This document shows, in pieces, positions 9,957 to 27,016 of a stretch of DNA of 50,833 nt. A model generated the notes under the pieces. The model searched no databases. It was not told the DNA's origin and saw only the letters and a list, made by a program, of their open reading frames with translations. The stretch comes from a virus (taxonomy: Duplodnaviria > Caudoviricetes). The translations under genes and the position numbers were made by a program. Each line of letters starts with the position of its first letter. Within the stretch, counting starts at the first letter, position 1. The stretch is from the IMG/VR virus record IMGVR_UViG_3300024264_000051, positions 1 through 50,833 of that record; one strand, 5' to 3'.

Positions 9957-10283
9957 ATGGCATTCGTTCGCAAAAAGGTCAAGACTTTTAAGTGGCCCGT
10001 GGAGGTTGAGGAGCCCGCTGATGGAGGCGTGTTTGACACCTCGACTTTTGATGCGGTGTTTAAGCGAGTGCCAAGGTCTGAGTTCCAAAAGCTTGCAGAC
10101 AAGGGCGACCTCGATTTGCTTAAAGCAGTGATGACTGGATGGGAAGGAATCGAGGACGAAGACGGAAAACCGTTGCCGTTTTCCCAGGCAGCAATGAAAG
10201 AATTTGCTGATGATCCTTATTGGATTCGCGGTGTCCTGAAGGCATATACGGAAACGTTTGAAGGCGCAAAACTGGGAAACTAA
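9957..10283 (+). CDS. Tail assembly chaperone (gpG analogue)
   Basis: Between tail tube and tape measure, ending in ...KLGN* at a slippery site. Confidence 0.85.
   Translation: MAFVRKKVKTFKWPVEVEEPADGGVFDTSTFDAVFKRVPRSEFQKLADKGDLDLLKAVMTGWEGIEDEDGKPLPFSQAAMKEFADDPYWIRGVLKAYTETFEGAKLGN
10274..10280 (+). other. -1 programmed frameshift site G_GGA_AAC (G/GT)
   Basis: X_XXY_YYZ heptamer immediately before TAA. The -1 frame is open (KLKDAVKYWANGGK...) into ORF 10361-10627. Confidence 0.85.
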
Positions 10284-25594: not shown

Positions 25595-25744
25595 ATGAAC
25601 GTTGAAGAGATCTTGTCGCATCCTGCTTTCTGGATCGTAGTCGCAGCAGCTTCTGAGCTGATCGGCATGAGTAAGCTCAAGGATAACTCAGTGGTGCAAC
25701 TTCTGTTCAGCGTTCTGCGTTCTTTGAAAGCAAAAAAGGACTGA
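25595..25744 (+). CDS. Small holin-like membrane protein (49 aa, not in ORF track)
   Basis: Hand translation: MNVEEILSHPAFWIVVAAASELIGMSKLKDNSVVQLLFSVLRSLKAKKD*. Two hydrophobic stretches, upstream of the endolysin. Confidence 0.7.
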   Translation: MNVEEILSHPAFWIVVAAASELIGMSKLKDNSVVQLLFSVLRSLKAKKD

Positions 25745-25959
25745 TCCCCGCAGATGGGAGGTGGTTGTTTGGATTCTCAACGCGATCACCTCTTGAAGGG
25801 TTAAAGCGCGAAACTCAACGTCGCAAGTTCGAGGTGACGCTTAAACCTCGGATCGATGCTGAAGTCGAACGCTGGCATGAATCACAGCCGCCAGTGATGC
25901 CACCACACAAGGTCGACGACCTACACATAGAATCACCTTGGAGCAATGACCAACAGTAA
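25732..25959 (+). CDS. -1-frame extension of the holin-like protein (or separate small ORF)
   Basis: A_AAA_AAG at 25732-25738. The -1 frame reads GLIPADGRWLFGFSTRSP...NDQQ* and includes track ORF 25765-25959. Confidence 0.6.
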   Translation, partial: KKGLIPADGRWLFGFSTRSPLEGLKRETQRRKFEVTLKPRIDAEVERWHESQPPVMPPHKVDDLHIESPWSNDQQ

Positions 25960-27016
25960 GGCAATCTCACTCGAACAGCTTTTCAGGTATTACAAAGGGC
26001 TACCGCATCAGGCTGCAGCAATTCAAGAGCTAGAGGCGGATCTAAGCAAAAATGGCTATGAAATCGCGATGCGTCGTAATCGGGGATGGTTTGCGACATG
26101 GAGCCAATCAGGCAAACAGCGCAACTATCAGGCCGCGATTGCGCTGGTGAAGTCTTTTGAAGGCTTCCATCACGATGCGTACTTATGCCCCGCTGAGGTG
26201 TGGTCAATTGGGTGGGGGAATACGACAAAGGCTGATGGCTCACCTGTCGTTCCTGGTGATCGGATCAGCCAGGAGGATGGGGATGTGCTTTTGCAAAAAA
26301 CGATCAATGATATTGCCGTGAAGTTGGCCGGATCTATTCCCTACTGGTCAGCAATGAAGGAGCATCAGCAATCGGCGCTGATCTCGTTTGGATACAACCT
26401 GGGGAGCTATTTCTACGGGCAACCAGGATTTGAAACGATCAGCCGTTGCTTGCGCGAGCGGACTTATAAAAGCGTCCCTGGCGCGCTGCTGCTCTACTGC
26501 AATCCGGGCACTACGTTTGAAGCTGGCCTTAGGCGTCGAAGGCAAGCCGAGGGCCAGTTATGGGCTGGTGAACAAGCTGCAGCGCCAGAACCTGCAATGA
26601 TCCGGCCTGAGTCACCGTTCAGCACCCGTCTAACGCCACATATCACGCTCGGTGAATTTGCGCTTGGTCAAGAGGCGAGACGCTTTCAGCATCAGTATCA
26701 AGTAGACATGGCAGCCGAGCTGGCGGCGTTTTTGGAGCGTGTCCGCGTCAAGTTTGGCGGCTGGCCGATCATGATCACGTCTGGCTACAGGCCACCAGCC
26801 ATAAACAGATCGGTTGGCGGTGCTAGCGGGTCAGAGCACCTGTACTCGGCACCGGGAGTGGGTGCTGTGGATTTTTGTGTGCAAGGCGCTGATATTTATG
26901 CGGTACAAGAATGGTGTGACCAAAACTGGCCGCATAGTTTAGGATATGGGGCCAATAAAGGATTCGTGCATCTCGGTATGCGAGAAGGCGGTCCAAGAAT
27001 ACGCTGGGACTACTAG
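25946..27016 (+). CDS. Endolysin: GH24 lysozyme plus peptidase M15A domain
   Basis: 'VKSFEG...AYLCPAEVWSIGWGNT', 'ALISFGYNLG' and 'GLRRRRQAE' (GH24). 'ITSGYRP..N..VGGA..SEH...AVDF...FVHLG' (M15A). Confidence 0.9.
   Translation: MTNSKAISLEQLFRYYKGLPHQAAAIQELEADLSKNGYEIAMRRNRGWFATWSQSGKQRNYQAAIALVKSFEGFHHDAYLCPAEVWSIGWGNTTKADGSPVVPGDRISQEDGDVLLQKTINDIAVKLAGSIPYWSAMKEHQQSALISFGYNLGSYFYGQPGFETISRCLRERTYKSVPGALLLYCNPGTTFEAGLRRRRQAEGQLWAGEQAAAPEPAMIRPESPFSTRLTPHITLGEFALGQEARRFQHQYQVDMAAELAAFLERVRVKFGGWPIMITSGYRPPAINRSVGGASGSEHLYSAPGVGAVDFCVQGADIYAVQEWCDQNWPHSLGYGANKGFVHLGMREGGPRIRWDY

Follow-up and report, generated by a model that had tools for sequence, protein, structure and literature searches.

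Programmed -1 ribosomal frameshifting in tailed phages is well documented mainly for tail assembly chaperones and for some capsid genes, and the tail-chaperone heptamer of phage lambda is G_GGA_AAG. In Escherichia coli dnaX, which encodes tau and gamma, the slippery heptamer A_AAA_AAG is accompanied by an upstream Shine-Dalgarno (SD)-like element and by a stem-loop on the 3' side, and shifted ribosomes make the shorter product. The holin-antiholin isoforms of lambda (S105/S107) and phage 21 (S68/S71) differ at their N-termini through dual start codons. Here, we describe a slippery site at the end of a gene for a 49-amino-acid (aa) protein located just upstream of an endolysin gene in IMG/VR record IMGVR_UViG_3300024264_000051. 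The record is a complete virus record in a single contig of 50,833 bases (the window, meaning the whole stretch analyzed), whose + strand carries siphovirus-like structural genes. We regard the virus as a marine cyanophage; among public runs, the best match to the record is a seawater metagenome, its possible source. Comparison of homologous loci makes it very probable that programmed -1 ribosomal frameshifting at this site yields two products, of 49 and 121 aa.

The anatomy of the site is summarized in Table 1. The end of the 49-aa open reading frame (ORF) and the phase of the heptamer, whose first A is the third base of the GCA codon, agree base for base with a preliminary description of this DNA. 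Most ribosomes would read GCA AAA AAG GAC and terminate at the TGA, producing the 49-aa protein. A fraction, with AAA in the P site and AAG in the A site, would slip one base back on A_AAA_AAG and continue through GGA CTG ATC to the TAA at 25957-25959, producing a 121-aa protein that consists of the first 48 residues and a 73-residue extension (a helix, a Pro-rich tail and a conserved C-terminal motif). Translation of the -1 frame from G25738 gives GLIPADGRWLFGFSTRSP.... The extension ORF overlaps the endolysin ATG at 25946 by 14 nucleotides (nt); its first ATG is codon 54, and its first TTG, codon 10 at 25765, is the earliest canonical start codon within it. By reading of the sequence, the -1 frame is open for 17 codons 5' of the heptamer and holds no ATG, GTG or TTG there. 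The earlier account of about 73 codons running to 25959 into the endolysin start, with no ATG near the 5' end, is borne out at exactly 73 codons.

The heptamer by itself is not beyond chance: the window contains 12 copies of AAAAAAG where 16 would be expected. Among the 305 mechanically called ORFs of at least 45 aa, nine carry an in-phase heptamer within their last five codons, and only four of these nine also have a -1 frame that stays open over 50 codons or more. Two of the four sit, by their coordinates, inside larger genes in another frame; the others are the 49-aa site and the tail-chaperone site of the same phage. Taken together, phase, open -1 frame and conservation exceed chance.

Table 1 Features of the frameshift site, its neighbors and the tail-chaperone site in the window
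Feature	Coordinates	Strand	Description
Short-isoform ORF	25595..25744	+	49 aa, zero frame; 3' end GCA AAA AAG GAC TGA
Slippery heptamer A_AAA_AAG	25732..25738	+	X_XXY_YYZ phase; proposed tandem -1 tRNA slippage site
Zero-frame stop TGA	25742..25744	+	3 nt past the heptamer
-1 frame extension	25738..25959	+	73 sense codons (25738-25956), then TAA 25957-25959
Predicted long isoform, 121 aa	25595..25959	+	Zero-frame codons 1-48 (25595-25738) joined to the -1 frame from 25738; inferred from the anatomy
Upstream partner gene, 92 aa	25289..25567	+	phrog_26178 (function unknown), E-value 1.8e-16
Endolysin, 356 aa	25946..27016	+	Phage_lysozyme PF00959, 1.3e-20; Peptidase_M15_3 PF08291, 3.4e-19; phrog_28234
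Tail-chaperone ORF, 108 aa	9957..10283	+	Ends CTG GGA AAC TGA; G_GGA_AAC 10274-10280 in phase

By homology, the 49-aa gene is a member of a real and widespread family. Its product matches phrog_22542, a family of unknown function, over the full length (1-49/49, E-value 5.5e-29), and a profile search of 1.84 billion representative proteins returned 140 clusters (50% identity, E-values up to 0.001), most of them proteins of 45-75 aa with the domain at the C-terminal end. Relatives occur in the cultured Synechococcus siphoviruses KBS-S-2A, S-CBS1 and S-CBS3 (46 aa in S-CBS3), in the T7-like podoviruses 7B11-B, WH11-B and S-B28, more distantly in P60, and in S-EIVl. Two sets of loci were compared. 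The first comprised 84 sequences (66 distinct), namely the window, three cultured phages and 80 IMG/VR loci, which were the best 80 of 264 relatives. The global tally added 70 loci from two divergent queries and three from metagenome-assembled genomes (MAGs); from 162 domain-bearing loci, the removal of 24 nucleotide duplicates, one contig run-off and one disrupted locus (L111) left 136 distinct loci.

In the first set, A_AAA_AAG stands in phase in 83 of the 84 sequences. The codon that supplies its first A is GCA in 32 sequences, GGA in 23, CCA in 11, ACA in seven, TCA in four, GTA in four and CAA in two, so that the codon before AAA AAG encodes seven different amino acids while its third base is invariably A. 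The wobble bases of the last three codons are A, A and G in all 65 distinct sequences, and all other third positions in the gene vary. Likewise, the penultimate Lys is encoded by AAA in 65 of 65, against 129 AAG and 44 AAA among the Lys codons elsewhere in the gene. The zero-frame stop (TGA in 74 sequences, TAG in five and TAA in four) follows A_AAA_AAG after 3 nt in 82 of the 83 and directly in the remaining one, and the -1 codon overlapping it covaries among CTG, CTA, TTA and TTG, invariably encoding Leu. Measured from the 5'-most in-phase heptamer across all 126 heptamer-bearing loci of the global tally, the stop lies at 3 nt in 104 and at 0 nt in 13. Loci L005, L006, L009 and their relatives carry a second in-phase heptamer, T_TTA_AAA/T_TTA_AAG, 6 nt upstream of the main one (TCT TTA AAA GCA AAA AAG), and the -1 frame is open from there too.

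Across the global tally, 126 of the 136 loci possess an in-phase heptamer, and 124 combine a heptamer in the last five codons with a -1 ORF that spans at least 35 codons or runs off the locus. Conservation of heptamer and register, which the preliminary description had named as the check on its proposal, was thus found among homologues. The site is retained in S-CBS1, S-CBS3, KBS-S-2A, S-B28, WH11-B, 7B11-B, S-EIVl and more than 100 metagenomic phage contigs. The heptamer is A_AAA_AAG at 110 of the 126 loci; the other 16 present G_GGA_AAG (eight, including S-EIVl), A_AAA_AAC (four), C_CCA_AAG (three) or A_AAA_AAA (one) at the same codons, and all 16 have a homologous extension. At the ten loci where the heptamer is absent, the extension is absent as well, and no locus among the 136 has the extension without a slippery heptamer (Fisher's exact test, 1.6e-13, an upper bound on significance since the loci are related). 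Even so, the several heptamer types and the several losses imply repeated events.

The ten heptamer-less loci take different forms. In L073, the gene ends AAG AAA TGA, and the ATG of the endolysin overlaps this stop; in the MedDCM-S37-C6 fosmid it ends AAG AAA CAG GCC TAG and is followed by a convergent gene. Three loci (L106, L113 and L121) have no -1 ORF, and in four others (L138, L140, L144 and L146) the -1 ORF is simply the following gene, which is unrelated and begins at an ATG of its own within an ATGA overlap. In P60 gp39, a different extension is fused in frame. A tblastn search with a panel of 12 extension proteins detected no extension in nine of the ten loci, P60 being outside that panel test.

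The extension itself behaves as coding sequence in the -1 frame. Over its codons 1-17, the ratio of nonsynonymous to synonymous substitution rates (dN/dS) is 0.149, at a median dS of 1.29 that marks the synonymous sites as saturated, and stops occur in 0 of 62 sequences. The other two frames of the same region give 1.58 and 2.59, with stops in 6/62 and 50/62; the value for the 49-aa gene is 0.24. The start of the extension follows the consensus (G/E)-L-I-P-x-D-G-R-W-..-F-S-T-R-S, and entropy is far higher at third codon positions than at the first two. These patterns indicate purifying selection from the first codon on. No start codon is conserved in the extension, the first ATG, GTG or TTG falling anywhere from codon 2 to codon 54. 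Together, the heptamer, its phase, the -1 register, the coding selection from the first codon and the joint loss of heptamer and extension support a -1 frameshift, and we infer that the shift is translational.

An AlphaFold2 model of the extension, built from 59 sequences (mean predicted local distance difference test, pLDDT, 73.6), consists of a single long helix at residues 18-48 (pLDDT 85-92) followed by a Pro-rich, low-confidence tail, that is, helix plus disorder. Within the extension family, the N-terminal half is variable, and a core (K/R)-L-D-x-A-x-x-x-W-H-x-x-Q-P is shared; a C-terminal h-x-h-x-(A/S)-P-W motif is common to the sipho-, podo- and S-EIVl-type extensions, and the L130 variant retains just the core and this motif. 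The extension contains neither Cys nor a lipobox. Neither it nor the 49-aa protein matched any entry in Pfam, NCBIfam, PDB profiles or the ESM Atlas, apart from a chance-level PDB hit to troponin T.

Database proteins that appeared to join the two frames were examined separately. P0001 and P0002 were rejected as natural in-frame fusions proving the product, as both continue in the wrong frame. P0032 (148 aa, junction ...AKKKGLSVV...) was also rejected; it is read as a homopolymer plus indel error because its close DNA relatives L148 and L150 carry the frameshift and because it diverges once more toward its end. Judged by its protein sequence alone, P0034 (101 aa) may be a genuine in-frame deletion-fusion. 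In the proteins P0001, P0021, P0026 and P0028, the zero frame runs past KK(D/G) as W/C-A-T-Y..., as if TGA were TGG or TGC; possible explanations are read-through variants, a different arrangement in another lineage and errors of sequencing.

Several results weigh against a programmed shift at this site. RNAalifold predicted 0 pairs in 38 sequences from the heptamer to +82, an upstream SD-like 4-mer is present in only three of the 126 heptamer-bearing loci, and Rfam gave no match at the frameshift site. Two distinct loci, L126 and L128, keep the heptamer with a -1 ORF of only 13 codons. The loci are metagenomic and phylogenetically related, so that the counts overstate independent events, and the case is built on comparison. 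The three loci L126, L127 and L128 all have A_AAA_AAG in phase with a -1 frame closing at 13 codons and no extension homologue downstream; they may have lost the extension recently, or the short tail may itself be functional.

Stimulatory elements are frequent at -1 frameshift sites without being obligatory, and none is conserved here. The 72 nt downstream of the site in the window do not fold better than shuffled sequence (z = -1.46; 15 of 200 shuffles do equally well). The TCCC (25745-48)/GGGA (25756-59) stem proposed in the preliminary description does not hold up: the letters exist, the minimum free energy fold ignores them, and the complementarity comes, by inspection, from Pro and Gly codons with freely varying wobble bases. 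The label "dnaX-type" given there is accurate for the heptamer, which is identical, and fails for the SD-like element, the downstream structure and the Rfam match. As at the frameshift sites of phage tail assembly chaperones, the heptamer and the nearby zero-frame stop are the only conserved signals. No stimulator need accompany a heptamer, given that the dnaX slippery site alone directs 14-16% shifting in cell-free assays, according to the available text of a recent preprint (bioRxiv 10.1101/2025.10.02.679949).

A picocyanobacterial MAG with a related locus, a single MAG of unknown completeness, has one tRNA-Lys (UUU) and no CUU among 34 tRNA hits, and ARAGORN found no tRNA genes in the window. 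According to Tsuchihashi and Brown, tRNA-Lys UUU without a CUU isoacceptor reportedly favors shifting on A_AAA_AAG in E. coli. Dependence on tRNA-Lys(UUU), as for dnaX, is therefore plausible, and the absence of tRNA-Lys(CUU) from the host-type MAG is only suggestive.

In architecture, the lysis-gene site resembles tail-chaperone frameshifts more than dnaX, because neither a stem nor an upstream SD-like element is conserved; unlike dnaX, moreover, the shift gives the longer product. As in the tail chaperones, a short ORF has a canonical in-phase heptamer in its final codons and a stop 0-3 nt beyond it, the long product equals the short one plus a C-terminal extension without its own start, the position of the site is conserved across very diverged phages, and the heptamers are interchangeable. 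The G/GT-type -1 frameshift of tail assembly chaperones in tailed phages was described by Xu, Hendrix and Duda (2004), as cited in the accessible part of PMC10885494. The phage studied here has a site of this kind, and the same heptamer-beside-stop layout recurs there: at the end of the 108-aa ORF, the -1 frame is open for 115 codons to 10627 and overlaps the start (10617) of a 1551-aa ORF of tape-measure size. By this arrangement, the site at 10274 is a classic tail-assembly-chaperone frameshift. The lysis-gene site differs in belonging to a 49-aa membrane protein of the lysis cassette and to another gene family.

The 49-aa gene forms, by synteny, the middle of a conserved three-gene module. 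A homologue of the upstream 92-aa protein (about 80-92 aa) lies directly 5' of it in 85 of 92 loci (91 of which have room to show one), and an endolysin homologue lies 3' in 76 of 92 (83 with room). The upstream protein has an N-terminal hydrophobic segment rich in Gly, Ala and Ser (Kyte-Doolittle score 2.30, residues 1-15), then Arg-Arg and a predicted coiled coil. The two genes occur together in siphovirus and podovirus contexts, even where the extension is absent, and the upstream protein may be the true holin or a partner. The N-terminal approximately 55 aa of the endolysin (25946-26110) have no Pfam match and are conserved while the catalytic domains differ, with the consensus ..LFRYYxxLPHQxAA..ELE....R...W..TW in the window and in loci L005-L091; many loci share only this domain with the 356-aa endolysin. 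In the T7-like cyanophages S-B28, WH11-B, 7B11-B and P60, the gene stands between the tail fibre and small terminase genes, the position of the T7 holin gene 17.5. Alignment of 56 sequences of the 49-aa protein revealed an acidic N-terminus, an invariant Ser-Glu in the hydrophobic segment and a short basic loop, followed by an amphipathic helix and the Lys-rich end KAKKD.

The long protein could be reached without ribosomal slippage if RNA polymerase added one A within the A-run, so that a minority of mRNAs joined both ORFs. The protein product would be identical to that of a frameshift, and the A-run is at least six long at 110 of the 126 heptamer-bearing loci, where transcriptional slippage may contribute; some runs reach 7-8 (CC AAA AAA AAG in L148/L150; also L137/L149). 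Six A, however, is short for efficient transcriptional slippage, and at 12 distinct loci (those with G_GGA_AAG, C_CCA_AAG or GGA AAA AAC, the last being two of the four A_AAA_AAC loci) the homopolymer is five or shorter, yet the in-phase X_XXY_YYZ pattern and the homologous extension are retained. That the short-run loci keep the tandem-slippage pattern and its phase fits tRNA re-pairing over polymerase stuttering, and the final G/C and the codon phase, neither of which polymerase slippage needs, are conserved. Contigs from three RNA libraries span the site and show no indel (X17, which matches the window exactly over 25601-25861, and X20/X21, which represent a relative over 25725-26017). This is weak evidence, since contigs hide rare variants and do not reveal transcript ends or expression. 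Overall, transcriptional slippage has a slim chance of being the explanation. The extension might instead be a separate gene without any transframe fusion, initiated at TTG 25765 or reached by ribosomes that terminate at the TGA and reinitiate. GGGAGG at 25756-25761 precedes that TTG, and GenBank annotates S-CBS3 gp22 and S-CBS1 gp23 from internal starts. The GGGAGG, however, is just 3 nt from the TTG and is built from Gly and Arg codons that vary, while TTG occupies codon 10 in a minority of loci and is replaced by CTT in KBS-S-2A. The nine codons before it are under the same purifying selection as the rest of codons 1-17, with L-I-P-x-D-G-R-W in columns 2-9, and the constraint on the stop-overlapping codon is for Leu and not for a start. 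Where downstream genes do have their own start in an ATGA overlap (L073, L138, L140, L144 and L146), the locus lacks the heptamer and the encoded protein is an unrelated one. A separate gene is accordingly the most improbable of the routes considered, and the 136-locus comparison strongly favors, as first proposed, a frameshift giving a short and a C-terminally extended isoform over initiation at TTG 25765.

What the two products of the -1 frameshift do is a more tentative matter. We read the gene as encoding a lysis-cassette membrane protein that is probably holin-like. The preferred reading, offered at somewhat under even confidence, is that the short form would act as a holin-like hole former with the upstream protein, and that the minor long form would modulate timing or assembly through a cytoplasmic tail; holins are known to be regulated in part by a charged C-terminus on the cytoplasmic side. 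Like lambda S and phage 21 S, this would be one small lysis-cassette membrane-protein gene with two isoforms at a ratio set by translation; unlike them, its isoforms would differ by 73 C-terminal residues through a frameshift, and there is no sequence similarity. T7 gp17.5 is likewise a small membrane protein, encoded at the same gene position as in the T7-like cyanophages; it is 67 aa long, with no frameshift annotated in the T7 record and no detectable homology with the 49-aa protein. Against a holin role, the 49-aa protein has a single segment (residues 11-25) that is short and moderately hydrophobic (Kyte-Doolittle score 1.83), so that "hydrophobic", as the ORF had been called, is right for one segment and to a moderate degree only. 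In addition, no holin, antiholin or spanin family was matched in Pfam, PHROGs (unknown-function families only), NCBIfam or PDB profiles, and hhalign of the family against T7 gp17.5 gave a probability of 0.8% over seven aligned columns. As for topology, a Lys-rich terminus lies on the cytoplasmic side under the positive-inside rule, and the charge distribution alone would make the C-terminus cytoplasmic and the extension with it. The suggestion of a holin/antiholin or spanin-like pair is thus plausible from position and architecture and lacks homology to any holin family; for a spanin, the extension has no lipobox Cys, and its charge would argue for a cytoplasmic C-terminus.

The frameshift may also be real and the long isoform serve another lysis step, either spanin-like and directed to the outer membrane or tethering the endolysin through its N-terminal domain, with the upstream 92-aa protein as the holin. 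A simple scan found no ORF with a lipobox in the 50.8-kb genome, so that no o-spanin or u-spanin is recognizable; the extension, with its long helix, Pro-rich tail and conserved C-terminal motif, has a linker-and-docking architecture; the endolysin domain is kept while the catalytic domains are swapped; and the upstream protein is conserved even without the extension. Conversely, the charge distribution points to the cytoplasm and not the periplasm, the extension lacks Cys and a lipobox, L073 retains the endolysin N-terminal domain without the extension, and the T7-like phages retain the extension without an adjacent endolysin. We consider such a role rather unlikely. Complex prediction of the extension with the upstream protein, the endolysin N-terminal domain or the 49-aa protein scored 0.00 in both runs and is uninformative either way. 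A link between lysis and frameshifting has been described for MS2, where ribosomes that change frame within the coat gene allow the lysis gene to be expressed (Kastelein et al. 1982, as cited in PMC10885494). As proposed here, lysis output there is coupled to a low-frequency ribosomal frameshift; unlike here, MS2 is an RNA phage with other genes, and its shifted ribosome terminates and reinitiates at the lysis gene without a transframe fusion.

The recoding is of a known type, in a gene class for which no description of frameshifting was found. Searches of open-access full text turned up no report of frameshifting in any membrane protein of a lysis cassette. The available text of the PRFect paper (PMC10885494) discusses tail chaperones and lists lysins among the genes with reported frameshifts, citing Shearman et al. 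1994, and the accessible part of the S-LBS1 paper mentions neither a holin nor a frameshift. None of 11 distinct GenBank phage records annotates a joined coding sequence, a holin or a spanin. These records label the 49-aa gene a "hypothetical protein" or leave it unannotated (S-B28, S-EIVl and MedDCM-OCT-S37-C6; loci L087, L088 and L085), and the extension is unannotated or begun at an internal codon. The conserved site means that the annotation of the whole gene family can be corrected, the unannotated or mis-started ORF becoming the C-terminal part of a second isoform.

Lysis genes are still poorly understood in marine cyanophages, ecologically important viruses, and a membrane protein recoded into two isoforms offers a concrete, genetically tractable entry to lysis timing. 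It is conceivable, though doubtful, that cyanophages of several morphotypes time or execute lysis through a fixed, sequence-encoded -1 rate that sets the ratio of a 49-aa hole former to a 121-aa isoform. The cytoplasmic tail of the latter would then restrain the holin, as a frameshift-made antiholin, or supply an envelope-disruption or endolysin-docking function lacking in apparently spanin-less phages. If this is true, frameshift efficiency, and so lysis timing, could track the translational state of the host, such as tRNA-Lys modification or nutrient limitation.

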